Source: Candidatus Saccharimonadota bacterium (lineage in GTDB: Archaea > Nanohalarchaeota > Nanosalinia > Nanosalinales > Nanosalinaceae). From it: a stretch of 32,000 nt of DNA. The DNA lies in the NCBI GenBank assembly GCA_001761425.1, contig CP012986.1, positions 120,001-152,000 of the forward strand. The letters run 5' to 3'. A program made the translations under genes and the position numbers. Below the pieces are notes generated by a model. It saw nothing but the letters and a program-made list of their open reading frames with translations, made no database searches and was not told where the DNA came from. Shown here in pieces: positions 4,315 through 28,609 of the stretch; within the stretch, counting starts at the first letter, position 1, and every line of letters starts with the position of its first letter.

Positions 4315-4343
4315 TTCCACACGAAATCAGGGGGTGGGGGTCC
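4315..4343 (+). repeat. origin recognition box (ORB) copy c
   Basis: Sequence ttccacacgaaatcagggggtgggggtcc. Its TTCCAC end faces the AT-rich element, mirroring copy b. Confidence 0.75.
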
Positions 4344-5656: not shown

Positions 5657-5688
5657 GGCCTTTCAGACAGAGAGGGGGATTTTTGGTA

Positions 5689-12497: not shown

Positions 12498-12498
12498 A

Positions 12499-12524
12499 TT
12501 TTTTTCTTTGTTATTTTTCTTTTC
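12499..12524 (+). terminator. oligo-T rich tract after the CBS gene
   Basis: tttttttctttgttatttttcttttc begins immediately after the TAG stop. Archaeal termination typically uses oligo-T tracts. Confidence 0.35.
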
Positions 12525-12570
12525 TGGAATGGAGGGCTTTTTTACAGAGGCCTGATAAGTAGTTACTTAT

Positions 12571-13017
12571 ATGGAGATAATTGAGGAAGCGGTCCGCCGT
12601 CGACAGACCCTTGAACTTGAGTACCCGCGTGAGGCCTACGACGAGATAAAGGACCTGCTGGAAAACAGGATGGGCTTTGACCATGTCCACGAGGAGAAAT
12701 ACTACAACGACGTGGACGGGGACATGATCCGTGTAAAGATCGAGACTGTAGAAGCCCTTGACGGAGAGACCAGGGAGGAGCTGGAGATTTTCTTCAAGAT
12801 TAACAAGGCGACCGGCGAAGTTGATATCCAGGTCAAGGGCAAACTAGTGACCGAGTACCCTGATGAGAAGATGTGGCAGGACACTCTGTGGTACTACGCT
12901 TACCGCTCGCTTTACGACAAGTTCCTGTACGGCAGTGTCAGAGAGGGTTATGAACCAGCGGTAGAGGAAAAAGTAGATAGTCTCATGACAAGGATGAGGG
13001 ATACCCTGGAGGCCTGA
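12571..13017 (+). CDS. hypothetical protein, member 1 of a three-gene paralog cluster
   Basis: 148-aa acidic ORF. Collinear with the next gene: AYDEIKDLLENRMGFD vs IYRGLKDLLVDEFDMD, KLVTEYP vs EVLTVYP, and an aromatic-rich C-terminal helix (WYYAYRSLYDKFLY vs ILVGIWYNKFYS). Confidence 0.7.
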   Translation: MEIIEEAVRRRQTLELEYPREAYDEIKDLLENRMGFDHVHEEKYYNDVDGDMIRVKIETVEALDGETREELEIFFKINKATGEVDIQVKGKLVTEYPDEKMWQDTLWYYAYRSLYDKFLYGSVREGYEPAVEEKVDSLMTRMRDTLEA

Positions 13018-13025
13018 AAAAATAT

Positions 13026-13643
13026 ATGGTAAAATACTCAGATCACTACTTCAGGAAATCCGACCACTTCTTCGTGGACGAGGACCCGGCCAGGATCTAC
13101 AGAGGCCTCAAAGACCTTCTTGTGGACGAGTTCGATATGGACAGAATCGAGGAAGGGAAGATGGAGTTTAACGTAGAGAAGCCAAAGGACAGGGTCCGCA
13201 TGCACGCGTTTAAAGAAAAGTCTCCGCATACTGTAATCCATTACAGTCTGTCGTTCAAGGCGAAGACACCTAAAGATATTTATGCGAAGGAGAGGCGTGA
13301 AGGCCTTTTCAAGGCCCGTGTCCAGACTTCTGCGGAGGTCTTAACTGTTTATCCTGGATGGAATCCTACTTCGTGGGAGCCTCAGGGCCCTTCGTATTAC
13401 AAGCAGGAGAGGATGCCTGATGCACCTGTTGCAGAGGAGAAAACGCGTTTCCAGCGTTCCAAATTATACAAGATCCTGGTAGGTATCTGGTACAACAAAT
13501 TTTATTCCAAAGAGATTCACAGGTATGGTGAGGAGGCAGAAGAGTCTGTGATACGTATTCAAAACCTTATGAGAGAGAAGTTCGGAGTCCAGGAATCTAT
13601 CGGCAGGACCGGAGCTTCTCACTACGATGCACCGTGGAAGTAA
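13026..13643 (+). CDS. hypothetical protein, member 2 of a three-gene paralog cluster
   Basis: 205-aa ORF, 8 nt after member 1. Shares the block order of member 1, with an inserted loop (GWNPTSWEPQGPSYYKQERMPDAPVAEE). Confidence 0.7.
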   Translation: MVKYSDHYFRKSDHFFVDEDPARIYRGLKDLLVDEFDMDRIEEGKMEFNVEKPKDRVRMHAFKEKSPHTVIHYSLSFKAKTPKDIYAKERREGLFKARVQTSAEVLTVYPGWNPTSWEPQGPSYYKQERMPDAPVAEEKTRFQRSKLYKILVGIWYNKFYSKEIHRYGEEAEESVIRIQNLMREKFGVQESIGRTGASHYDAPWK

Positions 13644-13656
13644 GGCCTGATGAGAC

Positions 13657-14313
13657 ATGAGTGATGACGAACAAGGTTTTCTGGACGGGGTAGCTTACTG
13701 GTTTCGGACACCGGATCCGGGTAAAGTAGATGAGGATAATATCTGGCATGATTTCCATATTTTCGACGGTGGATGGGTCGAACTTGTAAACAGGCTGGAA
13801 TGGTACGAGTCACCGAACGTTACGTCGATCTACGAACAGCACAAGTACATGATGAAGGAAAACATGGACATGACCAGGCCTTTCGAGAACTACTTCTACC
13901 AGAACGTGGACAGCGGTGAATTCGAGTCCAAGATGGAATGTGAGATGCCCTTGCCCAGTGGTAGAGGGAATTACAGGATAAGGCCTCGTATCAGGACGAA
14001 GGCTCCGCCTTCAGGGGAAAACGACTTTGGCCTGGTCGAGTACTGGAGTAGGTTAGAGATTTCGTATGATATGCCCCAGGGAGTGGATTTCCTTCCGCGT
14101 TTCGTGGCGAGGCCTCTTAACAGGTTTTTCAAGTGGGCTTTCCTGAAATATATCGGGGAAGAGATGATAGAGTATGACGGCGAATACGCGAGGGAAAAAC
14201 TGATGGAGTACATCCGTTATGTGAGAAAATACCACGGCGAGGAGCCGACACAGACCAAGACAAGACAGGCAGTATTCGAACCTGATCCTGAGGAAGGCAC
14301 TTTCTTCCAGTAG
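13657..14313 (+). CDS. hypothetical protein, member 3 (more divergent) of the cluster
   Basis: 218-aa ORF, 13 nt after member 2. Its C-terminal amphipathic aromatic helix (RFFKWAFLKYIGEEMIEYDGEYAREKLMEYIRYVRKY) resembles those of members 1 and 2. Confidence 0.7.
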   Translation: MSDDEQGFLDGVAYWFRTPDPGKVDEDNIWHDFHIFDGGWVELVNRLEWYESPNVTSIYEQHKYMMKENMDMTRPFENYFYQNVDSGEFESKMECEMPLPSGRGNYRIRPRIRTKAPPSGENDFGLVEYWSRLEISYDMPQGVDFLPRFVARPLNRFFKWAFLKYIGEEMIEYDGEYAREKLMEYIRYVRKYHGEEPTQTKTRQAVFEPDPEEGTFFQ

Positions 14314-16447: not shown

Positions 16448-16909
16448 TTATCTCAGGCCTGAAAGATCCAGAGGCCTTCCTTCGACCCTGGATTCGAGAA
16501 CTACGTTTGTCTTGGTATCTGTTATCCCTTCAAGCTGGTTCAGGTCATCTGTCAGGTTTTCTCGCATCTTTTCCCGGCTGATAAACTTGCAGATCGCGAT
16601 GATATCCGTATCTCCAGTCACCTGGTACAGCGAGTGGATATAGCTTTTTTCTGATAGAGTTTTCGAGACTTCTTTCTGTTTACCCGCCTCAGTCTTGATC
16701 TGGGTTATACAGGTAAAACTGAAGCCCAGCTTCCCGTAATCCAGCTGAGGCCTGAAACCTTTGATAACCTCCTTATCATGCAGTTCCTGGAAATGGTTGC
16801 TGACTGTGGAAGGAGAATAATCCAGTCTATCCGCAATTTTCCTGAGCGAGAGCCTCCCATCCTCATTCAACTGTTCAATTATTCGAACGTCCTTGATATT
16901 AGCCGACAT
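16448..16909 (-). CDS. lrp: Lrp/AsnC family transcriptional regulator
   Basis: HTH region DVRIIEQLNEDGRLSLRKIADRLDYSPSTVSNHFQELHDKEVIKGF, followed by a RAM/AsnC_trans_reg-like C-terminal domain. ATG at 16909 is preferred over the track's TTG at 16918. Confidence 0.9.
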   Translation of the reverse strand: MSANIKDVRIIEQLNEDGRLSLRKIADRLDYSPSTVSNHFQELHDKEVIKGFRPQLDYGKLGFSFTCITQIKTEAGKQKEVSKTLSEKSYIHSLYQVTGDTDIIAICKFISREKMRENLTDDLNQLEGITDTKTNVVLESRVEGRPLDLSGLR

Positions 16910-16996
16910 ATAACACAAACAAAGGCCTCAACCTTTAAAAACTGGATGTATGTTCGAAGATAATTATATAACTCTGGCAAACGTATAAATATTCAT

Positions 16997-17098
16997 ATGA
17001 TAGAAGACGAATGCGTCGTCTGCGGTCACGAAATTGAAAAAGAAGGTATCGAGATAACAGAGGGCAGAGCCCACGAATTCTGCCTCGGAAACATCTAG
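16997..17098 (+). CDS. possible 33-aa TRASH/YHS-like zinc-binding micro-protein
   Basis: ORF MIEDECVVCGHEIEKEGIEITEGRAHEFCLGNI, read by me and below the track cutoff. It has C-x2-C ... H-x2-C spacing like TRASH domains. Divergently placed next to the lrp gene. Confidence 0.3.
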   Translation: MIEDECVVCGHEIEKEGIEITEGRAHEFCLGNI

Positions 17099-17157
17099 AA
17101 CCAGCTACATTTTTCCTCCACACAATTAAAGAGAAAGGCCTTCCAAAAACATACTTT

Positions 17158-17628
17158 ATGGAACTGGTAAAGGCCTCAGAGGGCGACGAAAAAGCTCTGG
17201 CCAAAATGTGGTTCAAGCTCGCAAAAGAAATGGAACAGTACCCGAAATTTAACCAGTTAACCCATAGCTCGCCTGAAGAAGCCGAAAAAAGCTTTAGAAA
17301 ACAGATCGAGGGAGAAGAAAAGATAAACTTCCTGATGAGAGACGAAGACCTTACCAAAGGGTTTCTAACCCTGAAACAGGGCGAGCATCCTTCGAGAAAA
17401 TACGAGAAATACACGCAGATCGTCAACCTCTTCGTAAAAGAAGGATACAGGAATGAAGGCCTTGGAACAGAAGCTATCGAACACGTCAGAGAATTCGCCG
17501 CGGAGAACGGCTCCGACCATTTGAAAGTAACTTCCGAGATCAAAAACACTGAAGCTATAGACTTCTACAGCAAAAACGGCTTTGAGAAGAAACAGGTCAA
17601 CATGGTCCAGAGCCTGGAAGACGAATAA
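17158..17628 (+). CDS. GNAT family N-acetyltransferase
   Basis: 156 aa. Motif A region VKEGYRNEGLGTEAIEHVREFAAENG, and a C-terminal NTEAIDFYSKNGFE typical of GNAT. Confidence 0.85.
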   Translation: MELVKASEGDEKALAKMWFKLAKEMEQYPKFNQLTHSSPEEAEKSFRKQIEGEEKINFLMRDEDLTKGFLTLKQGEHPSRKYEKYTQIVNLFVKEGYRNEGLGTEAIEHVREFAAENGSDHLKVTSEIKNTEAIDFYSKNGFEKKQVNMVQSLEDE

Positions 17629-17649
17629 AGGCCTTGAAAGCAAAAAATC

Positions 17650-17662
17650 AGCCCCGTCCGGG
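17650..17662. repeat. att site copy distal to the tRNA (displaced tRNA 3' fragment)
   Basis: agccccgtccggg is identical to 24567-24579. Located 22 nt after the GNAT stop codon. Confidence 0.75.
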
Positions 17663-17757
17663 CAAGCTCTTTTCTATGAACTTACTGGGTTAAATATGGG
17701 TATTAACAGTCTTCAACTCGGTTGTTATAAGTTCTTTGTTTAATTGAGTTATTAATC

Positions 17758-17901
17758 ATGGTTAAACTCCAAGAAGGATCTAATGGGCAGAAGTTCGTGA
17801 CAGTTCCAAAAGAATTGGCAAAGGCGATGGGGTGGGATAAGAGAGAGAATTTAGATTTTTCCGTTAAAAATGAAAACACTTTAGAGATTAAGAAAGACTA
17901 A
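17758..17901 (+). CDS. AbrB/SpoVT (MazE-like) domain small protein
   Basis: 47-aa ORF read by me: MVKLQEGSNGQKFVTVPKELAKAMGWDKRENLDFSVKNENTLEIKKD. It carries the FVTVPKELAKAMGW swapped-hairpin signature. It ends 7 nt before the next gene. Confidence 0.55.
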   Translation: MVKLQEGSNGQKFVTVPKELAKAMGWDKRENLDFSVKNENTLEIKKD

Positions 17902-17908
17902 TCCATTT

Positions 17909-19240
17909 ATGGACAAGGAGAAGTTGCAAGAGATAATAGAGACTGGTGAAGATCAGACAACTGAGTTTAAACGATCTCTTAGAGATGTGGCCGAGGTTGT
18001 AACTTCTTTCGCAAATGCGGAAGGAGGTAAACTAATTATTGGCTTGGAAGATAATGGTGAGAAAGTGCAAGCTCTGGATCAATGGGATTTGAATGATAAG
18101 AGGGCTAAAGTCCAAGACTCTATAAATTCAGTAGAGGGTATACTGGAAACGGACATAGAAGTTGTTGATGGCTTAATAGTCGTTGATGTTGAGTCAAATA
18201 AAGATTCTGTCAATAAAGCGCCTTCAGATTACTTTATAAGACAAGATACGATCGATAAGTCAATGGAGCATGATCAAATCCGTGCTTTGATGGAAGAAAG
18301 TGGTGATATTAGCTTTGAGCAAGTTAAATGTAGGAGGTTCCATTTTCCAGATGATATAGATCAGAAGGCAATAAATAAGTTCTTAGATCGCTCCGATATA
18401 TCTCAAGATAAAGTTGACATTGACTCAATGTTGATGTATTTGGGAGCCGCCCATAGAAAAAATAAGTCTATTGCAGTTAACAACGCCGGAGCCATATTAT
18501 TTGGGAGTCATCCTGAGCGGTTTGTTCCTAACTCAGGAATCCAATGTGTAGCTTATGAATCAGAGGGAGAAAGTATCGAGTGGGTTGATAAGGCGGAACT
18601 TAATTCTCCTGCAGTTCTAGCTGTTTTTGAGGCTATAGAGTTTATACACAAGAATACAAAGTCAAAGAAAAGAGTTAAGGATACAGCAAGGGAGACAGTA
18701 AATCAATATCCAACAGATGCTTTAAGAGAGGCTTTAGTTAACGCTGTTGTTCATAGAGATTACCATAATCAGAGAGAAAAGACCCAAGTAAAAGTATATC
18801 CAAATAGAGTTGAAATAAGGAATCCGGGCGGCTTAATAGGGAATATGTCAATAGATGATTTATGGACTGATGAATCTGTTCAAAGAAATCCTACTATAGC
18901 GAGCGTCATGCAGAGAATGGAGCTGGCTGAAGAGATGGGTACGGGAATTCAGAGAATTACTGAGGAAATGAAAAGTAAAAATTATCCTGAGCCCGATTTT
19001 AAAGATAATGGCAAGTTTGTAGTCAATCTAATAGGTAAGGAAATTCCTCAAGATTTAAACGAGAGACAAAAAGAGTTTTTGAGTAAGAGCAAATTTAGCG
19101 GGACATATACAAACTCTCAGTACCAGGATTTAATGGATGTTTCGAGAAATACTGCTTGGAGCGACCTTAAAGAGTTTACTGAGAGAGATATTATGGATAA
19201 AAAAGGGAAGAAAAGAGGAACAAAATATGAGTTTAAATAA
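17909..19240 (+). CDS. AlbA_2 (Schlafen-like) domain / HATPase_c_4 (RecG-C-like) / C-terminal wHTH protein
   Basis: 443 aa. N-terminal GEDQTTEFKRSL...VTSFANAEGGKLIIGLEDNG (AlbA_2 signature). Central LREALVNAVVHRDY...VKVYPNRVEIRNPGGL (HATPase_c_4 signature). C-terminal helical DNA-binding-like tail. Confidence 0.85.
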   Translation: MDKEKLQEIIETGEDQTTEFKRSLRDVAEVVTSFANAEGGKLIIGLEDNGEKVQALDQWDLNDKRAKVQDSINSVEGILETDIEVVDGLIVVDVESNKDSVNKAPSDYFIRQDTIDKSMEHDQIRALMEESGDISFEQVKCRRFHFPDDIDQKAINKFLDRSDISQDKVDIDSMLMYLGAAHRKNKSIAVNNAGAILFGSHPERFVPNSGIQCVAYESEGESIEWVDKAELNSPAVLAVFEAIEFIHKNTKSKKRVKDTARETVNQYPTDALREALVNAVVHRDYHNQREKTQVKVYPNRVEIRNPGGLIGNMSIDDLWTDESVQRNPTIASVMQRMELAEEMGTGIQRITEEMKSKNYPEPDFKDNGKFVVNLIGKEIPQDLNERQKEFLSKSKFSGTYTNSQYQDLMDVSRNTAWSDLKEFTERDIMDKKGKKRGTKYEFK

Positions 19241-19465
19241 CGTGAAATTATGTTAGGTGAGTTTGTGCAAAAATTTCCTCTAGATAGAGCCTAATGACCC
19301 TCTAATTAAGAGCAGGAAATTTATGTTAAGTGAAAGATGACATAAATTTCTCTTAGTTAACGCTTTTACTGCCGGTTTTCCGGGTTAATTCATATATAAG
19401 TCTTTCCCAAAACAAAATTAGTCTTATTAGATTCTAAAAGTTGCTGAGATCACGAGAATAGAATA

Positions 19466-19654
19466 TTAATTACTTTCCAATACCCACTTATCTTCTAGTT
19501 TTTCAATCACACCATCTTCCTCTAATTCCTCAAGCCTTTTCTCAGCAGTATTATAATGGCAGTTGACATATCTAGATACTCCATGAGTTGTCATAGGAAA
19601 CTTCTCAAGGCCTTCTACGATCTCTTCTTTTAGTTTAACCTTGCTTCTACCCAA
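19466..19654 (-). CDS. small winged-helix DNA-binding protein
   Basis: 62-aa ORF downstream of mcm on the same strand. MTTHGVSRYVNCHYNTAEKRLEELEEDGVIEK resembles an HTH followed by a wing. Confidence 0.5.
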   Translation of the reverse strand: MGRSKVKLKEEIVEGLEKFPMTTHGVSRYVNCHYNTAEKRLEELEEDGVIEKLEDKWVLESN

Positions 19655-19747
19655 GGGCTACCACCTGGGATAAGGCAAACTGATGTATCGTGAGGTTTTC
19701 TTGAGTCTTTCTTGAGTGTAAAGCTAGTCTGTTCTGAGTTAGTTGAT

Positions 19748-21775
19748 TCACGCTTTCACCTTCTGAGATCGTTGATCGGTATCTCCATCGTAGAGGCCTA
19801 GAGAGTTCCTACATCTCATGAACAGCTTTACTGCTCGTTCAGCATCCTCTTCGTTGGTTTTAGAGCTTAGCCGAGATTTGGCAAACATGGTTGTAAGAAG
19901 GCCTAATGCCATTAGATGCCTATTAGAATCTGTTTTAAAGGAGGAATTTCCTTTAGAATCGGCTATCTCTTTCTGGCCTCTAAGCCATTTCTTCAGCAAT
20001 TCAACAGATTCATCCGTGAGCTCTGGATCTTTGGATGCTGCAAGTTCCCGATACAGTACCAATTCCTCTTCATCAAAGTCTGTAGAGGCCTTTTCCTGAG
20101 AGGAATTGTTGAAGCTGTCGAAAATAGCATCCTGCACCTTTTCCTGATTGTCTGGACTTCTCATTGCATAAATCAGGTGGAAACGATCTAAGAGGGATTC
20201 GGCATGGTCAGGAATTGAGTCCTTTACGAATTCCATGTCGTCCACGTAATCCTCGAAATTTCCTGTAGCCACTACTGTAGCATTTCCTGGTAATTCGGCA
20301 TTGATAGAGGCCTTATCTATAGGAAATGTCTTACTAGTCATTGCCGTGTTCAGTCTACTGCTATCATTCTTGTTCATCTTATCGAACTCGTCCAGACAAA
20401 GAACACCTTCATCAGCATAGACCAACTTCCCTGCTCTAAGGCGGTAATTACCCTCCTCCTGTTCCACCGTAGCAGTAAGGGCAGGGCCTGTGGCATTACT
20501 ACCATCCGCTAGCTCGACATTCGAAAAAGTCTCCTTCACGAAGTTCTGAATGTCCGACTTTCCCGATCCAGGGTTAGAAAGCAGTAAACTATGAATCCTA
20601 CCGCTACCCCCTTGACCTCCAGTAGCCTTCCCACCTATGAGTGAAGCAGCAACCACCTTCTTAGCAAATTCCTGCTCCACGATACTAGGGGCTATACTAG
20701 TAGCAAAACTCTGGAAGGGGTTCTCCAGTGTATCTACCTTACCCATGAGTAGGCTAATTTCCTCTTTTTTGTAGTCCTCAAGTACCTTTTGAGAGTCCTG
20801 AGGCTTGAAAGATACTACCTTCAGTATAGGCTCTACCTTACTAGAATCCTTACCTATAGGTTGCCCATGAGCAACTCCTGTCACCCGTAACTCCTGACCG
20901 GGTTTGAAGGCCTCCTGTATATCCGAGGTAATAGAACTGCTCCTGAAATCGGCCTTGATGTACTCATTATGACCTTTCTCGTTGCTAATCCTGAAGCTGA
21001 CTAAATTGATCAAGTTCCTCGAAACCTCACCGAACTTCTTAGAACCGCATTCACACTTGTAAGGAGACTTCAACTTTGCCGAATCCTGCTCCTTCTCGTA
21101 TCTTTCTCCACACTGACTACATTCAAAGACGGCAGAAACCAGTTCTTGGTGGAAGTCAGAGGCTGACTCCACAGTTCCCTGAACTGTAATAAGCTTTTTC
21201 CTATATTCGTTGCTTCTGGCCTTGTAAAGCGGAATTTCCCAGTAGTCAACATCACAGTCTATAGTGTAATCAATACGACTCGAAACATCTAAAACCGTAT
21301 TAAAGGCCTTATCTACTGCATCAAGGAATTTCTCAGGATTATTCTCGAAATAATCTATCAGTTCAGGATTAAACTTGTCGAGCTCAGAAAGCTTCAGCTT
21401 GAAGGCAGTAGAATCAGCGATAGACTGTTTAATTTCCTCTTTTCTTTCATCAAGGAAATCGAGGAGTTGAAGCCTAATTTCCTCTAAATCCTCATTTTCA
21501 GCATCTATCTCTTCTCCTCCAATCAGGTATTCGGCCTTCCTCTTTCCTCTGGTATTAATTCTGTATTTCCCGTGTTCAGGCCTTTCCAGCAGGTTCTTAC
21601 TGCATAACTTGTTAATCAAGTTGTAGAAGGTACTTTCCTTCCCTTCATATTCCTCTTCTTCCTGATATTCCTCATAGATTTTACTGGTTGCGAAATCAGT
21701 GTCAGGATAGTTTTCCTTAATCCAGATCAAGATCTCATTTTGTCGATTCACATATATGCACCCCCCAGACCCCAT
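19748..21775 (-). CDS. mcm: MCM-family replicative helicase (mobile-element type) with N-terminal winged helix
   Basis: Zinc module CSQCGERYE...CECGSKKF. Walker A LLSNPGSGKSD, Walker B VLCLDEFDKM, arginine-finger region SLLDRFHLIY. ATG at 21775 is preferred because the track start (21847) lies inside the 62-bp tandem repeats. Confidence 0.9.
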   Translation of the reverse strand: MGSGGCIYVNRQNEILIWIKENYPDTDFATSKIYEEYQEEEEYEGKESTFYNLINKLCSKNLLERPEHGKYRINTRGKRKAEYLIGGEEIDAENEDLEEIRLQLLDFLDERKEEIKQSIADSTAFKLKLSELDKFNPELIDYFENNPEKFLDAVDKAFNTVLDVSSRIDYTIDCDVDYWEIPLYKARSNEYRKKLITVQGTVESASDFHQELVSAVFECSQCGERYEKEQDSAKLKSPYKCECGSKKFGEVSRNLINLVSFRISNEKGHNEYIKADFRSSSITSDIQEAFKPGQELRVTGVAHGQPIGKDSSKVEPILKVVSFKPQDSQKVLEDYKKEEISLLMGKVDTLENPFQSFATSIAPSIVEQEFAKKVVAASLIGGKATGGQGGSGRIHSLLLSNPGSGKSDIQNFVKETFSNVELADGSNATGPALTATVEQEEGNYRLRAGKLVYADEGVLCLDEFDKMNKNDSSRLNTAMTSKTFPIDKASINAELPGNATVVATGNFEDYVDDMEFVKDSIPDHAESLLDRFHLIYAMRSPDNQEKVQDAIFDSFNNSSQEKASTDFDEEELVLYRELAASKDPELTDESVELLKKWLRGQKEIADSKGNSSFKTDSNRHLMALGLLTTMFAKSRLSSKTNEEDAERAVKLFMRCRNSLGLYDGDTDQRSQKVKA

Positions 21776-21784
21776 AGTAAACCG

Positions 21785-21905
21785 TGTGAGGTATGTGACT
21801 TCAAACCGGATCTCACACAAGTAACACGGTGGAGCATGTGAGACCATGTGAGGTATGTGACTTGGTGTTCAAAGTCACACAAGTCACACGAAATTTGATG
21901 GGGGG
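21785..21905. repeat. two tandem 62-bp repeats (iteron-like) followed by an ORB-like site, upstream of mcm
   Basis: tgtgaggtatgtgactt occurs at 21785-21801 and 21847-21863. cacacaagtNacacg occurs at 21814-21828 and 21876-21890; both pairs are offset by 62 nt. cacacgaaat plus a G6 run lies at 21885-21905. Confidence 0.7.
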
Positions 21906-21929
21906 CAACCCCCATGTAAGAGAAAACAG

Positions 21930-22280
21930 TCATTTTTCCACTTCCCCATGTAAGAAGAGATCGGATTGAATTTTCGCAATCTCTCCTCTACTTGATTCAT
22001 CATCAGCTTGACCAAGAAGGCCTTCCAAGTCCTCATGAACCAGTTCTCTAGCAGGTTTGTAATTCTGAAGACCTATTCTCACTAGTCTTCTAATTGCCTC
22101 TGCTAAAGAGAACCCGTTATTATCAGCTATATCCTCTAGAGTCTCTATCGTTGACTTCTCAAACCTTGCTGTGGTCTGAAGCTTCTGACCTTTCTTGGTC
22201 TTAGACCGATTCGGTGATTTGTTAAGTTCATCTTTCCAACTATTAGTTGGAGTAACCCCAAGCTCCGTTTTTCCCTTCAT
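21930..22280 (-). CDS. ribbon-helix-helix (CopG/Arc-like) domain protein
   Basis: 116 aa. Basic N-terminal tail, then TTARFEKSTIETLEDIADNNGFSLAEAIRRLVRIGL (beta-strand plus two helices typical of RHH). An aggtga Shine-Dalgarno-like box lies about 10 nt upstream. Confidence 0.6.
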   Translation of the reverse strand: MKGKTELGVTPTNSWKDELNKSPNRSKTKKGQKLQTTARFEKSTIETLEDIADNNGFSLAEAIRRLVRIGLQNYKPARELVHEDLEGLLGQADDESSRGEIAKIQSDLFLHGEVEK

Positions 22281-22362
22281 TTTTCTCTGTCACCTGGCTT
22301 TGACGTTTTTCTGTTCAGAAACAACTTCTCTGACGATTTTATCTAGTTTAGAATCAAGATCT

Positions 22363-22509
22363 TCATTCACAGGAAGCCACCTCTTCAAGCTCGTCTACCT
22401 GCTCCAAAATCCCTCTTCTAGCGATTTCAGATTTTGAAAGTCCTGTAGTCTCAGCAACACTTTCAATCCTGTTGTTGAGATTGTCCGGCATCGATATTGT
22501 TAGACGCAT
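22363..22509 (-). CDS. ribbon-helix-helix (CopG family) small protein
   Basis: 48-aa ORF read by me: MRLTISMPDNLNNRIESVAETTGLSKSEIARRGILEQVDELEEVASCE. Classic CopG pattern. An aaggtg box lies about 9 nt upstream. Confidence 0.6.
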   Translation of the reverse strand: MRLTISMPDNLNNRIESVAETTGLSKSEIARRGILEQVDELEEVASCE

Positions 22510-22599
22510 AATATTACACCTTTCACATAGATGAATGGTAGTATATGAAATATTGTGCTAAGTCTTTTAAATATCTTTCATTAAATCCAGTACATCCAG

Positions 22600-23223
22600 A
22601 TGAAAGATACCGAAGTAGAATATGATGATATTTCGACAGAAATCTACGAGTCAAAGTTTGCGGCTAGAATTCTAAAGCATATCTACTCTAGTAATGCAAA
22701 ATACACTTCGGCAATAGCGGAGAATTTGGATTCAAATCCTCAATCAGTAAGTAATTATCTGAAGAAACTAAGAGAGCTAAACTTGATCAAGAAAGGAAAG
22801 AAAGAAGGTCGAGTTCAGCTTTATGAGCCAAATTTGGATGGTTTGCTTGACTATCTTAACAAGTTCGAGCTCTCGATTGAGGAAATTGCTGATAAGGTTC
22901 CTGAAGAGTTTCAGGATGAGGTAGAGGTTAAAGGGAGGGTTTTCATGAGGTCTTACATTTCTATATGTTTAGCTAAAAATCCGCATGAGATAGCAATGTG
23001 TGATTTATTTGTAGATAAGATCCATGATGGAATTCCAAAGATTGCAGAGACCGGCGGTGAAGATATACCTAAATGGTTATATTGGCTCTCTCTGGGTTAT
23101 GTGTTATATGAATATGAGGATTATGAGCTTGGCGAGATGAAAGAAAGAGCGCTGAATCTCGCTGAAGCCTCAGCTGAAGAAAAAGAAATTTTATCTGAGA
23201 TAAGGAAGCTAGTTTCGGAGTAA
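22600..23223 (+). CDS. ArsR-like winged-helix transcriptional regulator with C-terminal extension
   Basis: 207 aa. YTSAIAENLDSNPQSVSNYLKKLRELNLIKKGKKEGRVQLYEP is an HTH plus wing. Divergent from the RHH genes across a short promoter region. Confidence 0.7.
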   Translation: MKDTEVEYDDISTEIYESKFAARILKHIYSSNAKYTSAIAENLDSNPQSVSNYLKKLRELNLIKKGKKEGRVQLYEPNLDGLLDYLNKFELSIEEIADKVPEEFQDEVEVKGRVFMRSYISICLAKNPHEIAMCDLFVDKIHDGIPKIAETGGEDIPKWLYWLSLGYVLYEYEDYELGEMKERALNLAEASAEEKEILSEIRKLVSE

Positions 23224-24432
23224 ATCCTTTGCGGCCTCCCTTATTTCTTCATCTGATTTTCCTATGTCTTCTTCTATCATTTTTGTCTTAAGTTCATCTT
23301 TCATTTCCTCAATCTGAACTTCTGTGAAAAGATCGGAGGTCTTCAGTGTTGCATCACATTCTCTACAGTTTTCTGCCTCGAACTTGTTCAGTTCTTTACA
23401 TTCTTGGCATTTTACGGGGTTGAGGTCTTTTTCTGTTTCATCTTCTCTTTTCTCTATCCCTGAAATCTCTCTGATGCCTTGTTCTACATCGCTTTCGGCC
23501 ATTCTGATGTAAACTGCTACTTCTCCACTACCTTGAACCCATCCTCCAAACTCACATAGCTGAGCTTGATTCATACCTTGAGCAGCCAGATAAGTGGCTC
23601 TACCCTTCCTGAAAGCGTGAGGATTCGTTTTGATCCTATCAGGTATATTTGTTCTTTTTCTGGTCCTCTTCAAGACTTGATTAATTCCGCTGTAAGATAG
23701 CTGTTCGTCCTTCGTAGTGCTTCGGAAGATGAAAGCCTCCATGTTGTCGCTCTTATGATCGGATTCTTTCAGCTCTTTCAGGTATAGATAGCCTGCTCTT
23801 AGAGGAACAGTTCTACTTCCCCCTGTCTTAGTATCTCTAAATCTTACCTTAGCTATATCATTGGTAAACTTGACATCCTTCCATTTAAGGCCTAGAATTT
23901 CTCCTATTCTTCCTGCGGATGCCCATAAGGTCATTATAATTGCTTTATCTCTTAATCTAGTGGCGTGTTTTACCATCTCTTTGACTACATTAGGTGTGGG
24001 TAATCGGTCTGGATCGGTTCTTGAACTCTTTACAGTAGTCGTAAAAAAGTCGGTCAATTGTTTTCCATCTATATTTTCTTTTTTGCTACCTAGAAAATCC
24101 TTGAAAAACTTATTTACTGCTTTTTTATACTCTTTTTCAGTTCCCGGAGCCATTTCTTTCTCTTTGATCTTTCCTTGATTTAGTTTTCCTACCAATCCGA
24201 TCACATCGTCTTTTTCAGGGTTGTATAAATCGAAGTCAATGTGAGGTGCTAGTCTGTACCATGTGTAGAGGTATCTATTGGTTCTACTGTCTGAAAGGCC
24301 CTGAGATAAGAGGAAATTTTTGAAGTCAAGTAGAGTTTCTTTATTTTCATCTGAGATTTTATCTAGGTTTTTGATTCTTTCAACATTGCGTTTTATTCTC
24401 TGGCTGCGCTTGTAAATATCTCCGTCGGACAT
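23209..24432 (-). CDS. tyrosine recombinase / integrase with C-terminal zinc-ribbon extension
   Basis: 407 aa. Catalytic pattern ASAGRIGEILGLKWKDV (Arg), HAFRKGRATYL (His-x-x-Arg), GGW...VAVYIRM (Tyr). Followed by CQECKELNKFEAENCREC. Lies adjacent to the tRNA att site. Confidence 0.9.
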   Translation of the reverse strand: MSDGDIYKRSQRIKRNVERIKNLDKISDENKETLLDFKNFLLSQGLSDSRTNRYLYTWYRLAPHIDFDLYNPEKDDVIGLVGKLNQGKIKEKEMAPGTEKEYKKAVNKFFKDFLGSKKENIDGKQLTDFFTTTVKSSRTDPDRLPTPNVVKEMVKHATRLRDKAIIMTLWASAGRIGEILGLKWKDVKFTNDIAKVRFRDTKTGGSRTVPLRAGYLYLKELKESDHKSDNMEAFIFRSTTKDEQLSYSGINQVLKRTRKRTNIPDRIKTNPHAFRKGRATYLAAQGMNQAQLCEFGGWVQGSGEVAVYIRMAESDVEQGIREISGIEKREDETEKDLNPVKCQECKELNKFEAENCRECDATLKTSDLFTEVQIEEMKDELKTKMIEEDIGKSDEEIREAAKDLLRN

Positions 24433-24566
24433 ACATAGTCATCTCCACCCACATTTACTTTCGACCGAATTAATTCACAGAAAGGAAGTTGCCCTAGAGG
24501 GTAGTAGACCTGTGATCAAATTGTTAGGGCAATGATTATGCCCTAATTTTTTGATGAAAACCGTCT

Positions 24567-24579
24567 AGCCCCGTCCGGG
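24567..24579. repeat. att site copy within the tRNA-Thr 3' end
   Basis: agccccgtccggg corresponds to the discriminator base, the 3' acceptor strand and the 3' T-stem strand of the tRNA on the opposite strand. Confidence 0.75.
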
Positions 24580-24720
24580 ATTTGAACCCGGGATCTGTCC
24601 CTTGCTCTGTGCGGTTATATCCGTCTTCTGCAAGCCATTCTTTGAATGGCTTATTGCGTCCGGCTCGAGCGTAACCACGCCTACGAGGGGACCGCTCTAG
24701 CCAGGCTGAGCCAACGAGGC
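24567..24720 (-). tRNA. tRNA-Thr (anticodon CGU) with a 79-nt intron (24603-24681)
   Basis: Hand fold: acceptor GCCTCGT/ACGGGGC (one G-U pair), D arm GCTC-AGCCTGGCTA-GAGC, anticodon stem GTCCC/GGGAC, loop CTCGTA[intron]A, variable AGATC, T arm CCGGG-TTCAAAT-CCCGG, discriminator T. The anticodon assumes the canonical 37/38 intron position. Confidence 0.85.
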
Positions 24721-24754
24721 TATACAGAAATTTCTTCGCTGAAGTTTTTTGTAG

Positions 24755-25435
24755 TCACCGCTGGTAGTTGAAGGCCTGCTGGAAGTTGATTCTGGAGGCC
24801 TCTCCCTCTATGAGGTAGTTTGAGGCCTGTGATACTTTGTCTACTACTTTTTGTGCGTCCTCTTTGCTGTAACTGGCGACTTCTTCGGCGAATTTCTGGT
24901 ACATGACCGGTGCTTCTTGCTGGAATTTGTAGAAGTCTTTATCTGACATACTGTCTATGCCGCCGTCTTTAAACTCGAAGGCTGAGCTGTCGTAGACGTC
25001 GAAGGCCTTTGCTTCTCCGTTGTAGAATCCTATGTTGTCTCCGGGATCTTCGTAGACTATACCTCTTTCTGTGAATTCGTCGAGGAGGTTTTCTACTGTC
25101 TCCTCTACTACAAAGTCTGTTCCGTATTTTTCTACGGCTTCTCCGACTTTTTCATCGGCCTCGTCCTGGTGTATCACCATTGTCTCTTCCCAGAGGCCTA
25201 TATCGGTGAAATCTCTTTCGTTGACTGTTCCGGGTGCTATGAAATCTGTTTCCCCGAGTTCTTCTCTGTTTTCTTCCGGGAAGTCTTTCCTGGCCACTGG
25301 CTTGACCATTCCGCGGAGGCCTCTGTACACTGTCTTGTTTGTTCCGGTGTTGATGGAGTCTCCGTGCTTTATCGCCGCTTTTTCGGCCTTTTTTCTCTGC
25401 TCTGTATCTTCCTGGATTACTCTGCCAATCGACAT
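24755..25435 (-). CDS. hypothetical acidic protein
   Basis: ORF from the track. ATG at 25435 (MSIGRVIQED...) is preferred over the TTG at 25486 because a TATA-like gttattaac lies about 25-30 nt upstream. No recognised motifs. Confidence 0.6.
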   Translation of the reverse strand: MSIGRVIQEDTEQRKKAEKAAIKHGDSINTGTNKTVYRGLRGMVKPVARKDFPEENREELGETDFIAPGTVNERDFTDIGLWEETMVIHQDEADEKVGEAVEKYGTDFVVEETVENLLDEFTERGIVYEDPGDNIGFYNGEAKAFDVYDSSAFEFKDGGIDSMSDKDFYKFQQEAPVMYQKFAEEVASYSKEDAQKVVDKVSQASNYLIEGEASRINFQQAFNYQR

Positions 25436-25533
25436 AATTGTTGTTATGGCCCGGTAGTTAATAACTTTTGGGTGTGGTTTCGGCAAGGTAATTTAAACCG
25501 GTCCTGAGAATCTTTGGTTATTGGTGATCAATT

Positions 25534-25731
25534 TTGGAAGATACTATCGGTGAAGTTGCGGGAGAAGTCTGGGATTTCCTTGAAGAGAACGGAGAGACGT
25601 CTGTTTCAGGAGTGACGAAAGGAGTCGAGGCTCCGGGCACTAAAGTTTACATGGCGATGGGCTGGCTTGCCAGAGAAGATAAACTGGAGTTTCTCGATAA
25701 GAAAAGAGGCAACGCGGTCAGGCTGAATTAA
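25534..25731 (+). CDS. small winged-helix protein (DUF2582-like)
   Basis: 65 aa, TTG start, with an in-frame TGA just upstream. IGEVAGEVWDFLEENGETSVSGVTKGVEAPGTKVYMAMGWLAREDKLEF matches my recollection of the DUF2582 wHTH pattern. Confidence 0.65.
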   Translation: MEDTIGEVAGEVWDFLEENGETSVSGVTKGVEAPGTKVYMAMGWLAREDKLEFLDKKRGNAVRLN

Positions 25732-25771
25732 AGGCCTCAAGGTTTTATTCTAAGGCCTCCAATAACTTTAC

Positions 25772-26713
25772 ATGACTCTGAGAGAAGGAGCTGAAACTAT
25801 AGTTAAACAGTGTTTAAACGTTCAGAGGGACGAACATGTCCTGGTTCTGAACGATTCTAATGATCAGGAGTTCATTGATGCGTTGATGGATGTGCTTGAA
25901 GAGGAGGCAGGCCTTGCTCTCTTGAAGGAGTACGAGGAGCCGGAGAATCATGGTGATGAACCGCCGGAGGAAGTTGCTCAGGCGATGAAGGATGCTGATG
26001 TGGTTATCGCTCCTACGATGAAGTCTCTTTCCCATACTGATGCTAGGAGGGAGGCCGGTGCCTGTGGATCTCGGATTGCGACGCTTCCGACGATCGACAG
26101 GGAGATATGGAACGGTGCATTACAGGCTGATTATGAGGAAGTCAGGAAAATTTCTGAAAAAGTCTACTCAATGCTTGAAGATACTGAAGTTGTAAGGATT
26201 GAGACTCCGTCAGGCACGGAGCTGGAGCTTAATATCGAGATTGATACTTTTCATACTGATACAGGCCTTATCCATGAGGAAGGGGCTTTCGGCAACCTTC
26301 CTGCGGGAGAATCTGACGGTGCTTCTGTCAATGCGAACGGAACTCTCATGGTTGATCACTTCGTCGTCTCCGGCGAAGGAGCAAGACTTGAGATACAGGA
26401 CAACGAGGTTGTCGCCTACCAGGGTGAGGAGGGAACCGATCTTGAGGAAGGCCTCAGTGAGATTCAGTGTGTGAAGAATGTTGCGGAGTTTGGTTTCGGG
26501 ACTAATCCTGAAGCCTCTCTGATAGGCAATATTCTGGAGGATGAGAAAGTTCTGGGAACTGTGCATATCGCTCTGGGCGATAACTCCTCGTATATGGACG
26601 GTTCACGTGCGGTTAACTGTAAGGTTCACTGGGATGCTGTATGCGAAGAGCCGACGGTCTGGTTCGATGATGAGAAGGTCCTGGATTCGGGGGAACCTGT
26701 TTTCCTTGAGTGA
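25772..26713 (+). CDS. aminopeptidase, M29 (AmpS/aminopeptidase T)-like
   Basis: 313 aa. N-terminal GAETIVKQCLNVQRDEHVLVL and C-terminal GTVHIALGDN resemble COG2309-type aminopeptidases. The assignment is tentative. Confidence 0.6.
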   Translation: MTLREGAETIVKQCLNVQRDEHVLVLNDSNDQEFIDALMDVLEEEAGLALLKEYEEPENHGDEPPEEVAQAMKDADVVIAPTMKSLSHTDARREAGACGSRIATLPTIDREIWNGALQADYEEVRKISEKVYSMLEDTEVVRIETPSGTELELNIEIDTFHTDTGLIHEEGAFGNLPAGESDGASVNANGTLMVDHFVVSGEGARLEIQDNEVVAYQGEEGTDLEEGLSEIQCVKNVAEFGFGTNPEASLIGNILEDEKVLGTVHIALGDNSSYMDGSRAVNCKVHWDAVCEEPTVWFDDEKVLDSGEPVFLE

Positions 26714-26755
26714 GGTTACATTTTAAACCGAGGTCTACGCATAACTTATTATTCC

Positions 26756-28609
26756 ATGGGACTGTTGAACTCTGACGTCGAGGACTCGGTATCTGATGCG
26801 GTCTCCGAGACCAAAAATAATGCTGAGGAGCTTGAAGGCGAGATCAGAGATGAGGAGTCCAAGATCCAGGAGCTTCTGAACCGTGTCAGCAAGATCGAGT
26901 ACCGGCAGAACCAGTTAGAGGCCTCCGACGATGAAGATCTTCGTCAGAGGCAACAGGAGCTAAGTGAGGAAATTAATGAACTCCGCAAGGATTTTTCTGA
27001 TATCAAGATAGACTATAATTCTCTTCCGAAAGATTACGAGTTCCAGGACATGGTAGATGAGTTTGAAGAGAAGAGAGAAAAGGTTGAACAGCTTCTTCCT
27101 GCGATCGAGGCAGCCTTCGACGATATTGAAGAGATCGAGGACCAGTCTATTGTCACAGAAAGAGACGTAGAGGATATACGTGACAGACTGGAACAGTTCC
27201 AGGACAGAGAGGAACAGATCCAGAAACTGAAGGCTCACATCGAAGATATGGACAAGAGCCTTTCAGACATGGGTAGAGAGCTGAAAGACGTCGAGATAGA
27301 GGAAAAAGTCGATAAATCAAGGTTCCAGCAGAAACTTGAAAGCGTCAGAGGAGACCAGCTGGTCGAACTCGCAAGGCTGAGAGACCGGGTGAAAAACCTG
27401 GCTGTCGAAGAGAAAGTCGACAGGTCAGAGCTAGACCGCGAACTGGAACAGATGAGAGATGAGCTCGGTATAAACATGATAGATAAGGTTTACAGGCTGA
27501 GAGAACAGCTTGCCTCCAAATCGGAGGTCAGAAGCCTCTGGGACACGATAGAGCTACTGGAGGAGAGGCACGATGATGCTCTCCAGGAGATCGATGTCGT
27601 GGAAGAGCAGCTCTCTGATGTCATTGAATATGTAGCAGACCTCGATGAAGGCCTTGAAGGCCTGAAAGATACTGTAGAGGAAGTAGACGAAAGAAAAGTT
27701 GACAGGGAGGAGTTTGAACAGCTTGAGTTGGATGACAAGATAGAGATCTCTGAACTGGAGAAAAAGCTGGAGGAGCTGAGAGATGAGTTCGGCATTGATA
27801 TAGAGGAGTCTGAAAAGACTTTACGCGAACAGCTGGCTTCCAAATCTGAAGTTGTTTCGCTCTGGGACAGCCTTGAAGAGGTCCGGGAGAAACAGGATAA
27901 AAAGCTGAGTCGTGAAGAATTCGAGGAAAAGATCTCTGACGTTGAAAGTGTTCTTCCTGCGGTAGAGGAGGCCTATAATGATATTGCGGAGCTTGAGGAG
28001 AAGTTTGATAAGAAGGACAAGCGTATAGAGCAGAAGGTTGATCGGGAAGAGTTTGAGAGGATGGAGATTGAGGACAAGGTTGAGGCCTCTCAGCTGGAGA
28101 GGGAGATCCAGGATGTGATGGAGGAGATCGGTGTAAGTATACTTGAATCCGAGCATAGGCTTCGTGAACAGCTGGCCTCAAAGTCCGAGGTCAGGAATCT
28201 CTGGGATTCGATGGATCTTCTTGAGGACAGGTTTGATGATCATTCCCAGGATATTGACGGCCTGGAAAAAGAGGTAACAGAGAACTTTGAGCACCTGGCC
28301 GAGGTGAAAGAGGACGTAGACAGGGTTGAAGAGAGGCAGGAAGGCCTTGTAACGGAGAATGAATTTGAGGAGAAGACTGCGGATATTGATGCTCTTGAGA
28401 AAGAGGTTACCGAGCTTCTGGCAGATTTCTCCGATCTCAGTGACAGGATAGAGGATTCAGAGCAGACTGCTGAAGGCCTTGAGTCGGATATTGAAGGCGT
28501 CGAGGAACGTGTTCCTGATGAGCCTGTGAGCCGTGAGGAATTTGAGGATCTGCAGGAGAAGGTCCAGAGGCTTTCAGAAGCTTTGGTGAAGGTAGCGAAC
28601 AAGGATTAG
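26756..28609 (+). CDS. highly acidic coiled-coil protein with three long internal repeats
   Basis: 617 aa, rich in E, D, L, K and R throughout. The block LREQLASKSEV(R/V)(S/N)LWD recurs three times, with DNA copies starting near 27499, 27826 and 28164. Confidence 0.8.
   Translation: MGLLNSDVEDSVSDAVSETKNNAEELEGEIRDEESKIQELLNRVSKIEYRQNQLEASDDEDLRQRQQELSEEINELRKDFSDIKIDYNSLPKDYEFQDMVDEFEEKREKVEQLLPAIEAAFDDIEEIEDQSIVTERDVEDIRDRLEQFQDREEQIQKLKAHIEDMDKSLSDMGRELKDVEIEEKVDKSRFQQKLESVRGDQLVELARLRDRVKNLAVEEKVDRSELDRELEQMRDELGINMIDKVYRLREQLASKSEVRSLWDTIELLEERHDDALQEIDVVEEQLSDVIEYVADLDEGLEGLKDTVEEVDERKVDREEFEQLELDDKIEISELEKKLEELRDEFGIDIEESEKTLREQLASKSEVVSLWDSLEEVREKQDKKLSREEFEEKISDVESVLPAVEEAYNDIAELEEKFDKKDKRIEQKVDREEFERMEIEDKVEASQLEREIQDVMEEIGVSILESEHRLREQLASKSEVRNLWDSMDLLEDRFDDHSQDIDGLEKEVTENFEHLAEVKEDVDRVEERQEGLVTENEFEEKTADIDALEKEVTELLADFSDLSDRIEDSEQTAEGLESDIEGVEERVPDEPVSREEFEDLQEKVQRLSEALVKVANKD

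Follow-up and report, generated by a model that had tools for sequence, protein, structure and literature searches.

The window analysed here is a 32,000-nt stretch of a nanohaloarchaeal chromosome (contig CP012986.1, positions 120,001 to 152,000), and all coordinates refer to it if not stated otherwise. It contains an element of 6,917 bp (17663–24579, counting one core copy) that is bordered by two copies of a short direct repeat, one of which forms the 3' end of a tRNA-Thr(CGU) gene. The eight genes of this element include a tyrosine integrase and a helicase of the MCM family, the latter preceded by an array of short repeats. Related loci from other assemblies are denoted by L numbers.

The repeat pair and the tRNA-Thr(CGU) target

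The 13-mer AGCCCCGTCCGGG occurs at exactly two sites of the window, 17650–17662 and 24567–24579, where a first-pass annotation of this DNA had already placed a perfect direct repeat. There is no third match in the window even if one mismatch is allowed, and the identity stops at 13 nt if the surroundings of both copies are compared. Two or more matches were obtained in none of 100 dinucleotide-preserving shuffles, in line with the earlier judgement that recurrence by chance is unlikely. The left copy is the distal att core (attR side), an exact repeat that marks the left insertion boundary next to a break of synteny at 17641/17642 (see below). The right copy, the tRNA-proximal core (attL side), is the same as the final 13 nt of the tRNA and consists of 5 nt of the 3' strand of the T-stem, 7 nt of the 3' strand of the acceptor stem and the discriminator U73. 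This assignment had been made before and stands, with the correction that the tRNA gene contains a 79-nt intron. The gene lies on the reverse strand (24567–24720) with its 5' exon at 24682–24720, the intron at 24603–24681 and the 3' exon at 24567–24602.

Because of this intron ARAGORN with default settings and Rfam at gathering thresholds give a false negative, i.e. zero tRNAs in the window. If introns are allowed, ARAGORN reports a gene at c[24566..24721] that is labelled Ala(AGC), with the 79-nt intron at position 36/37. This label was rejected since the 36/37 placement yields a different anticodon for each orthologue. If the intron is placed canonically at 37/38, the two exons (39 nt on the 5' side, 36 nt on the 3' side) are 100% identical in the window and in the loci L005 and L006, and the introns (79, 79 and 134 nt, respectively) are divergent in sequence. 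The spliced sequence is called tRNA-Thr(CGU), and the orthologue in L065 is called Thr(CGU) by ARAGORN directly. In the four nanohaloarchaeal genomes the introns of this gene (window 24603–24681; L005 1158–1236; L006 5066–5199; L065 within 6237–6380) are long (69–134 nt) and divergent with a central hairpin that is kept, namely GCCATTCAAAGAATGGC (window, L005) or CCATGC...GCATGG (L006, L065). For methods this is a caution: long introns hide tRNAs from default finders, and islands anchored at tRNA genes will be under-called in such genomes.

Insertion, empty site and boundaries

A metagenome scan with the tRNA 3' exon led to two contigs. L005 (ERZ1034573 NODE-50) is collinear with the window at 16533–17641 (77.7% identity) and again at 24567–27546 (76.9%), and it is devoid of everything between 17642 and 24566. 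At the join the stop codon of the GNAT gene, the flank AGGCCTTGAA, the 13-mer core and the tRNA are contiguous, and the same genes for proteins of 226 and 313 amino acids (aa) follow on the other side of the site. The empty site that the earlier annotation had proposed to look for, with GNAT directly followed by tRNA-Thr, is thus present in a syntenic relative, and relative to that genome the element is a true insertion. The 13-bp repeat duplicates the 3' end of the tRNA so that the tRNA remains intact, and an intact integrase gene is found immediately downstream of it.

Between the cores the GC content is 0.398, compared with 0.457–0.486 in every flanking window of 6.9 kb (about 0.47 for the flanks). 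A wider left boundary, suggested by a dip of GC from about 16000 on, was considered and ruled out. The stretch 16533–17641 is syntenic with L005, and the dip therefore belongs to host sequence.

The integrase

The integrase gene (23209–24432, reverse strand) encodes a Xer-like protein of 407 aa (Pfam Phage_integrase PF00589, 1.6e-24). It is co-directional with the tRNA and starts 135 nt past the tRNA end. All catalytic residues are present (R175, K202, H272, R275, W298 and Y308), and the C-terminal part carries a CxxC...CxxC zinc ribbon at residues 342–359. The nearest solved structure is archaeal XerA (4a8e, E 2.7e-9); the score against the XerA equivalog is 79 bits at a cut-off of 220. The full-length open reading frame (ORF) is located inside the element with the att site outside the gene, and since the gene stays intact upon integration the enzyme is not of the SSV type. 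The claim of a tyrosine integrase abutting the tRNA was thus correct. More than 100 homologues with 37–68% identity were found, and every named member of this family is nanohaloarchaeal.

Upstream of int, on the same strand, the motif TTCTGTGAATTAATTCGGTCGAAAGTAAATGTGGGTGGAG (24443–24482) is conserved in L002, L004, L060 and L065 as integrase leader or attP arm. In the window some 85 nt (24483–24566) are found between the att core and this leader, including the palindromes TTAGGGCATAATCATTGCCCTAA (24524–24546) and CCCTCTAGGG (24492–24501). The four relatives do not have this stretch and their leader begins about 8–20 nt past the core. It could be a small insertion, a tRNA terminator or a site for an accessory factor.

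The MCM helicase

The mcm gene (19748–21751, reverse strand) encodes a protein of 667 aa if translated from GTG at 21751 (Pfam MCM PF00493, 2.8e-36; MCM_OB PF17207, 5.2e-9). This GTG is the likely start codon: it gives the N-terminus MNRQNEILIW, which fits the consensus MxxQxxILxW of its clade, and the Shine–Dalgarno-like sequence GGGGGGTG (21759–21766, reverse strand) lies 7 nt upstream of it. Equivalent sequences, GGAGGTG or GGGGGTG, are found 9–12 nt before the start codon in L020, L002 and L004. The protein comprises an N-terminal PadR-like winged helix (encoded at about 21521–21751), a helical domain, an OB fold with a zinc finger, the AAA+ core and a lid. With 125 bits it is far above the cut-off of PF00493 (23.3). 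In the numbering of a 660-aa version the motifs are Walker A (K391), Walker B (D447/E448), sensor 1 (N491), arginine finger (R516) and sensor 2 (R604), and the zinc finger is formed by C204, C207, C226 and C228. These cysteines and the catalytic motifs are invariant across 40 members of the clade.

An AlphaFold2 model of the whole protein (82.9 in the predicted local distance difference test, pLDDT) is matched by Foldseek to the subunit of an archaeal MCM hexamer (8x7t, E 2e-39, template modelling (TM) score about 0.7). In the model the extra domain covers residues 1–70 with the order H-H-H-beta-beta-H and is followed by a disordered linker; at the other end it stops after the lid helices, without a C-terminal winged helix. 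Modelled alone, the N-terminal domain reaches a pLDDT of 92.6 and its Foldseek neighbours are of the PadR, MarR and IclR type (TM scores 0.65–0.79). The earlier notion of an MCM with its own winged-helix N-terminus is supported by these models, with the start corrected to GTG 21751. In Pfam the MCM_N domain (PF14551, domain A) was not detected, and the NCBIfam model for MCM gives 199 bits at a cut-off of 940. The protein is an MCM-family helicase but it is not a cellular-type orthologue; instead of the C-terminal winged helix it possesses an extra one at its N-terminal end.

MCMs from chromosomes, plasmids and viruses align to the protein of the element just from about residue 88–116 on. A profile of the N-terminal domain searched against 1.84 billion representative proteins was recovered completely almost only at the N-terminus of proteins of MCM length, with about 25 clusters at E values up to 1e-10. 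The closest relatives of the full protein show 35–49% identity and are mostly encoded on contigs of 2–20 kb, and chromosomal nanohaloarchaeal MCMs share about 30%. In IMG/VR no close relative was found, only MCMs with 23–27% identity, and matches in PLSDB and INPHARED do not exceed 29% identity, all of them without the N-terminal domain.

The genome scan for MCMs was based on an alignment of 15 sequences. All 100 bootstraps of a neighbour-joining tree of 91 MCMs recover the 40 sequences from mobile elements as monophyletic, and the nearest sequences outside this clade are chromosomal MCMs of nanohaloarchaea; as a few distances among the most divergent pairs are undefined, we rely on the monophyly of the mobile-element clade and not on the sister relationship. 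The phylogenetic placement against chromosomal MCMs that had been suggested as a check thus leads to a separate mobile-element clade. Two contigs with nanohaloarchaeal-type MCM, L033 and L049, are found in GenBank metagenome-assembled genomes labelled “Colwellia polaris” and “Candidatus Nealsonbacteria”; under these labels they are probably binning contaminants.

The repeat array upstream of mcm

Upstream of mcm and downstream of the gene for p116, a protein resembling ribbon-helix-helix (RHH) proteins (see below), lies an array of TGTGAC-type repeats (21784–21888, reverse strand), a candidate origin or operator. It consists of two tandem modules, 21874–21888 with 21837–21861 and 21812–21826 with 21784–21799. 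In each module TGTGAC-type direct units are followed by inverted GTCACA/TCACA units with a phasing of 9–10 nt. In the relatives the region directly upstream of mcm has the same layout, with about three direct units that are separated by an AT-rich spacer from about three inverted ones. The unit itself depends on the locus and is TGTGAC in the window, TGGCAA in L004, TGTAG(CA) in L002, TGTGGG in both L020 and L058, GGTTAA(T) in L003, TATAGAC in L022, TGTGTAT in L060 and a degenerate GTATGAA-type sequence in L059.

An array was defined by a 5-mer with at least two direct copies 8–11 nt apart, followed within 70 nt by at least two inverted copies of the same spacing. This phased-array definition was used instead of an earlier shuffle null that was too permissive (0.5–9% of the shuffles passed per region). 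Eight of nine regions upstream of mcm contain such an array, and a scan of about 190 kb of element loci revealed one further case, in the non-MCM element of L065. The recognition helix of the winged-helix domain has a conserved scaffold (S/T-F...L..K/R-L), and its exposed positions vary where the units differ between elements; L020 and L058, with the same unit, do not differ at these positions. This agreement between helix and unit is weak evidence, as L020 and L058 are close relatives.

Overlapping the end of the array, on the forward strand, is the sequence GTCACACGAAATTTGATGGGGGG (21883–21905), which resembles an origin recognition box (ORB). It shares the exact 10-mer CACACGAAAT and a G-run with an ORB of the host oriC (4318), and these are the only two exact copies of CACACGAAAT in the window. 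The pattern was not seen in the loci of the relatives, and the match in the element may be due to chance. The G-runs beside the arrays were likewise considered as G-strings of ORBs and dismissed, as they lie 7–12 nt from start codons and fit Shine–Dalgarno sequences better.

The other genes of the element

The remaining six genes code for two RHH proteins, two winged helix-turn-helix (wHTH) proteins and an AbrB/AlbA_2 pair, exactly as previously listed (ORFs, Pfam and PHROGs). Upstream of the array p116 (116 aa, 21930–22280, reverse strand) is RHH-like; it has no match in Pfam, it hits the transcriptional repressors PHROG 876 and 4738 at about 8e-5 and it is 38% identical to the product of the L002 gene directly upstream of the array there. 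The next gene (22363–22509, reverse strand) encodes a CopG-type RHH protein of 48 aa (Pfam RHH_1, 7.4e-5, above the cut-off) with about 50% identity to proteins of L002 (51%) and L004. Divergent from this RHH–mcm operon is the gene for the ArsR/MarR-like wHTH protein wH207 (207 aa, 22600–23223, forward strand; Pfam HTH_5, 7.3e-5), which overlaps the 3' end of int and shows 32–34% identity to the int-adjacent genes of L002 and L004. Downstream of mcm a small wHTH protein of 62 aa is encoded (19466–19654, reverse strand), with weak matches to wHTH families of Pfam and 52% identity to the gene at the same position in L004.

At the far end an operon on the forward strand starts with an AbrB/MazE-like gene (SpoVT-AbrB fold, 47 aa, 17758–17901). 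Its product matches MazE_antitoxin of Pfam below the cut-off (E=0.0033) and PHROG 661 at 5.8e-8, and shares 64% identity with the terminal gene of L004 (43% with the one of L003). The second gene (17909–19240) encodes an AlbA_2 (Schlafen-like) protein of 443 aa with a HATPase_c_4 domain (PF13749, 2.6e-24; PF04326, 8.3e-11), which matches the N-terminal part of the PADLOC model for pAgo fusions and is 36% identical to a gene of L002. We regard it as cargo with a putative role in regulation or defence. Among the eight proteins no capsid, packaging or conjugation families were detected with Pfam, PHROGs and PADLOC, which can miss highly divergent archaeal capsid proteins, and Pfam revealed no conjugation ATPase of the VirB4/TraG type or mating-pore domain in the eight genes. 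The former statement that no capsid or packaging genes can be recognised is thereby supported.

Related elements and the host

The contig L002 is circular, with a size of about 10,065 bp and a terminal overlap of 30 nt. Compared with the window its integrase shows 41% identity, wH207 32%, RHH 51%, p116 38%, MCM 49% and AlbA_2 36%. In its AlbA–Int intergenic region GCCCAC is located about 20 nt before a core resembling a tRNA end and TTCGGTC about 20 nt after it, and these arm motifs match the attP reconstructed from integrated relatives. None of the tRNA ends in the retrieved loci corresponds to its putative attP core, CCTGACCCGGCT. L002 further contains two small ORFs of membrane type. Just downstream of its mcm (2469–3437) it encodes an AAA+ protein with a C-terminal winged helix that resembles Orc1/Cdc6 or a helicase loader, a gene that is absent from the element of the window.

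Other relatives are integrated. The element of L004 (about 9.9 kb) has a 16-nt repeat AATCCCGGTCGGGGCT, with int on one side and an AbrB-like gene on the opposite side, and one repeat copy is the 3' exon of an intron-containing Thr-like tRNA that is cut by the contig end. In L060 (about 7.6 kb, 5266–12941) tRNA-Arg(GCG) abuts int, the repeat has 16 nt and there are two tandem integrase genes. A separate contig of 7,647 bp from another sample, L061, consists of 14 nt, core, element, core and 14 nt. As 16 + 14 corresponds to k-1 of a graph break at k=31, its ends suggest a mixture in which empty and occupied sites would coexist in that sample. L003/L021 (about 17 kb) is integrated beside tRNA-Ile in the complete genome CP046106.1.

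In larger members of the family, defence genes or other cargo are found beside the MCM module. In L003 (4159–21163) this cargo includes AbiTii and a HerA-like ATPase, in L058 (4665–13159) a Mrr-type nuclease and a type I restriction–modification system, and in L059 a DUF87 ATPase, an HNH nuclease and an OB-fold protein.

L065 contains an integrated element of about 7.9 kb (6237–14270) that has no MCM. It occupies the same tRNA-Thr(CGU) gene within the same neighbourhood on the tRNA side, with a 13-nt repeat TCCCGCCCGGGGC. Its integrase is 68% identical to that of the window, a gene for a protein of 210 aa takes the place of wH207 (assigned by position), and Fic and MazE-like genes are present. 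It carries its own phased inverted-repeat array at 9688–9758. The tRNA-Thr(CGU) gene is a hotspot that is found in three states, i.e. empty, with the element described here and with a different one.

The host DNA around the element is chromosomal and encodes Orc1/Cdc6, both subunits of PolD (DP1 and DP2) and a DnaG-like Toprim protein. The Orc1 of the window shows 100% identity to the protein of “Nanohaloarchaea archaeon SW_7_46_7”, 96% to that of Ca. Nanohalobium sp. and 89% to that of Ca. Nanohalovita. The suspected host from a nanosized halophile lineage is therefore a nanohaloarchaeon by Orc1 identity. An identical Orc1 is encoded on a second megabase contig (1,118,574 bp; the source has 1,125,078 bp). 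The region 3900–4340, upstream of Orc1/Cdc6 (4448–5656), contains ORB-type repeats TTCCACA[CT]GAAATCAGGGGGT that end in a G-string. They are found at 3914–3940 and 4309–4335 with an inverted copy at 4188–4211, and flank an AT-rich stretch with three tandem 18-nt repeats (4233–4287). The GC skew changes its sign near 3000–3500. This region is probably the chromosomal replication origin.

Proposed life cycle and alternative explanations

The locus is best explained as an integrative plasmid-like “cryptic integrated element” of a nanohaloarchaeon that has its own MCM and integrase, and we hold this explanation with good confidence. From what is known about tyrosine integrases the attP site of a circular form (predicted as ...GATGAAAACCGTCT-AGCCCCGTCCGGG-CAAGCTCTTTTCTATG...) would have recombined with the tRNA 3' end as attB (predicted as ...GGCCTTGAAAGCAAAAAATC-AGCCCCGTCCGGG-ATTTGAACCCGGGATC...) via the 13-bp core; recombination in the opposite direction would set free a circle of about 6.9 kb. 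As an episome the element could be replicated by its own MCM helicase, with the TGTGAC array directly upstream of mcm as the best candidate origin. The two RHH and two wHTH proteins may control copy number and whether the element integrates or excises. At the far end, the AbrB-like/AlbA_2 pair would represent variable cargo, possibly an addiction or defence module. Since capsid, packaging and conjugation genes are not recognisable, the element would have to spread by vertical inheritance, in vesicles, through contact between cells or with the aid of a helper virus.

Some observations weigh against this explanation. The empty site stems from a different species (about 77% nucleotide identity) and not from a sister strain. 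Eleven extra nt, AGCAAAAAATC (17639–17649), separate the shared flank from the left core and are absent in L005; they may reflect lineage divergence or a scar. The att core of 13 bp is short, though inside the range of 8–26 bp known from thaumarchaeal elements (PMC6563490). A circular or excised form of exactly this element was not found: the predicted attP junction pattern is absent from IMG/VR, and exact-protein look-ups with GNAT, Int, Toprim and the 226-aa neighbour, aimed at an episome or a strain with an empty site, returned the integrated source locus only. Of the excised circle that had been anticipated, only the related circular contig L002 can be put forward, and none for this copy. 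The shortness of the repeat and the missing excised form could also speak for a 13-mer pair that recurs by chance around an ordinary non-mobile variable region. However, one copy is exactly the tRNA end, the shuffles never produced a pair, and the same geometry of repeats at tRNA ends recurs in L004 and L060 (both with MCM) and in L065 (without). The synteny break to L005 coincides with the repeats, and the empty site effectively refutes chance recurrence, the probability of which is negligible. The initial description had left a minimal integrative plasmid and a remnant provirus side by side. The plasmid-like insertion is supported by our data and the remnant provirus has found no positive support; the intactness of all eight genes argues against decay. 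A decayed provirus or a virus satellite packaged by a helper nanohaloarchaeal virus, as pSSVi and pSSVx are with fuselloviruses, is quite improbable to us. Spindle-shaped viruses of nanohaloarchaea are known to have plasmid-derived, satellite-like elements (bioRxiv 10.1101/2025.02.15.638363), pSSVi is small, integrative and comparable in size, and among the relatives the larger ones L003 and L059 carry HerA/DUF87-type ATPases and L002 has its small membrane-type ORFs. But neither this element nor L002 or L004 contains a detectable capsid, morphogenesis ATPase or terminase gene, and no morphogenesis gene (AAA+ ATPase or major capsid protein) common with a helper virus was detected in these three. 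Moreover, the described satellites use Rep or a primase–helicase and not MCM (bioRxiv 10.1101/2025.02.15.638363), and the MCM of the window has no close relative in IMG/VR.

Concerning replication, the reading we prefer is that the array would be an origin recognised by the winged helix of the MCM itself. In its strictest version, an independently evolved self-loading MCM would read the element-specific repeats with its PadR-like winged helix and assemble head-to-head without Orc1/Cdc6, a suggestion that we make tentatively. The assignment as origin is purely architectural, and two RHH genes are situated directly upstream. RHH repressors, among them CopG, omega and MetJ, are known to bind short repeats that are phased and run in direct and inverted orientation. 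The agreement between helix and unit rests on nine elements, in which the sole matching pair, L020 and L058, are close relatives. In addition, the closest relative L002 encodes an Orc1/Cdc6-like AAA+ protein, so self-loading of MCM is not universal in the family. As the main alternative, the array may have to be considered as a transcriptional operator through which RHH or wHTH proteins control the expression of mcm and thereby copy number, the winged helix of the MCM being used for autoregulation or protein contacts. The two RHH genes share the orientation of mcm, and the array lies between this upstream operon and the ribosome-binding site of mcm, which makes such a role quite conceivable, if not the one we would choose. 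On the other hand, the array is linked to mcm in eight of nine elements and the gene upstream of it varies (RHH-like in the window, L002, L004, L020 and L003, zinc-ribbon-type ORFs in L022), and two inverted arms around an AT-rich spacer are classic origin architecture. Operator and origin are compatible roles and do not exclude each other. Loading of MCM by Orc1/Cdc6 is the established archaeal pathway, and the element could employ the host Orc1/Cdc6 via the ORB-like site 21883–21905 with conventional loading. The exact 10-mer with its G-run and the Orc1/Cdc6-like protein of L002 are in favour of this possibility, but there is just one short match, its spacer differs, and the probability of finding it by chance is in the order of a few percent, and we judge conventional loading to be unlikely.

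Comparison with known systems

MCM-encoding elements integrated at tRNA genes are well documented in other archaea, for which Krupovic et al. 2010 is cited. The earlier remark that elements of other archaea have recruited MCM agrees with thaumarchaeal (PMC6563490) and Thermococcales (PMC12934983) cases. In Thaumarchaeota, MCM-carrying cryptic integrated elements target the 3' ends of tRNA genes, some of which contain introns, and have att sites of 8–26 bp (PMC6563490). NitGar-E6 and NitEve-E3 resemble the element of the window in having a tyrosine integrase, a tRNA 3' end as target, a short att site and MCM as replication protein, and the thaumarchaeal elements have RHH and wHTH regulators and no recognisable virion genes as well (PMC6563490). 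The window element belongs to another host phylum and is at the small end of this size range, and its MCM forms a clade of its own with a PadR-like N-terminal winged helix of about 70 aa. The SSV-type integrase of NitEve-E3 is split on integration, whereas that of the window stays intact.

In nanohaloarchaea a study of mobile elements reported viruses and satellites based on Rep or primase and no MCM-plus-integrase elements (bioRxiv 10.1101/2025.02.15.638363). A prior description of MCM–integrase elements in Nanohaloarchaeota was not found in the literature, the coverage of which was incomplete. The element is a further case of a known archaeal mobile-element type and anchors a small family in a host phylum that is under-sampled. 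In DPANN archaea, Nanohaloarchaeota included, mobile elements have hardly been charted, and this family is seen as integrated copies and a circular contig. A 6.9-kb replicon that encodes its own helicase and has a defined att site as well as a candidate origin could plausibly serve as a start for genetics in nanohaloarchaeon–haloarchaeon co-cultures, and if the MCM is indeed self-loading it would offer a ready-made minimal replicon and integration vector for Nanohaloarchaeota. We know of no genetic tools for this phylum.

pSSVi of Saccharolobus has a size of about 5.7 kb, an SSV-type integrase and replication proteins of the primase/helicase type. Like the window element it is small, integrates at a tRNA gene and lacks capsid genes; it is known in the episomal and the integrated state, whereas the element of the window has been found integrated only. 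With their plasmid-type replication proteins pSSVi and pSSVx are satellites of fuselloviruses, in contrast with the MCM-based element that has no evident helper virus or shared viral gene.

To our knowledge no cognate repeat array has been reported for MCM elements of Thermococcales, and element-specific arrays like those found here are undescribed. The Thermococcales elements of the TKV type, pTN3 and TPV1 share with the window an MCM clade specific for mobile genetic elements (MGEs), an extra N-terminal wHTH domain, integration at tRNA genes and the absence of an element-encoded Orc1/Cdc6. A 2026 preprint on Thermococcales viruses describes MGE MCMs in which a wHTH extension of about 200 aa is found at the N-terminus, and explicitly proposes that these MCMs combine origin recognition with helicase activity (PMC12934983). 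The concept of a self-recognising MCM is thus not new, and the N-terminal DNA-binding domain together with the element-specific arrays provides a testable case of origin recognition and unwinding by an MGE MCM. The extension in Thermococcales is Orc1-like, in contrast with the PadR-like domain of the window. Since the latter is shorter and specific for its clade, the two extensions are probably independent acquisitions. In tblastn the MCM of TPV1 aligns with that of the window at residues 179–652 only (29% identity). Many of the Thermococcales MCM elements are viruses with capsid genes, which have not been detected in the window element.

A functional analogy, and only that, exists to the large T antigen of SV40 and to E1 of papillomaviruses, which are hexameric helicases with their own sequence-specific DNA-binding domain. 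Their origins contain inverted sets of short units around an AT-rich centre on which a head-to-head double hexamer assembles, and the likeness to the array of the window is architectural. T antigen and E1 are superfamily 3 helicases with unrelated DNA-binding domains, whereas the helicase of the window is an MCM. If self-loading holds true, this protein would be the MCM counterpart, in archaea, of T antigen and E1.

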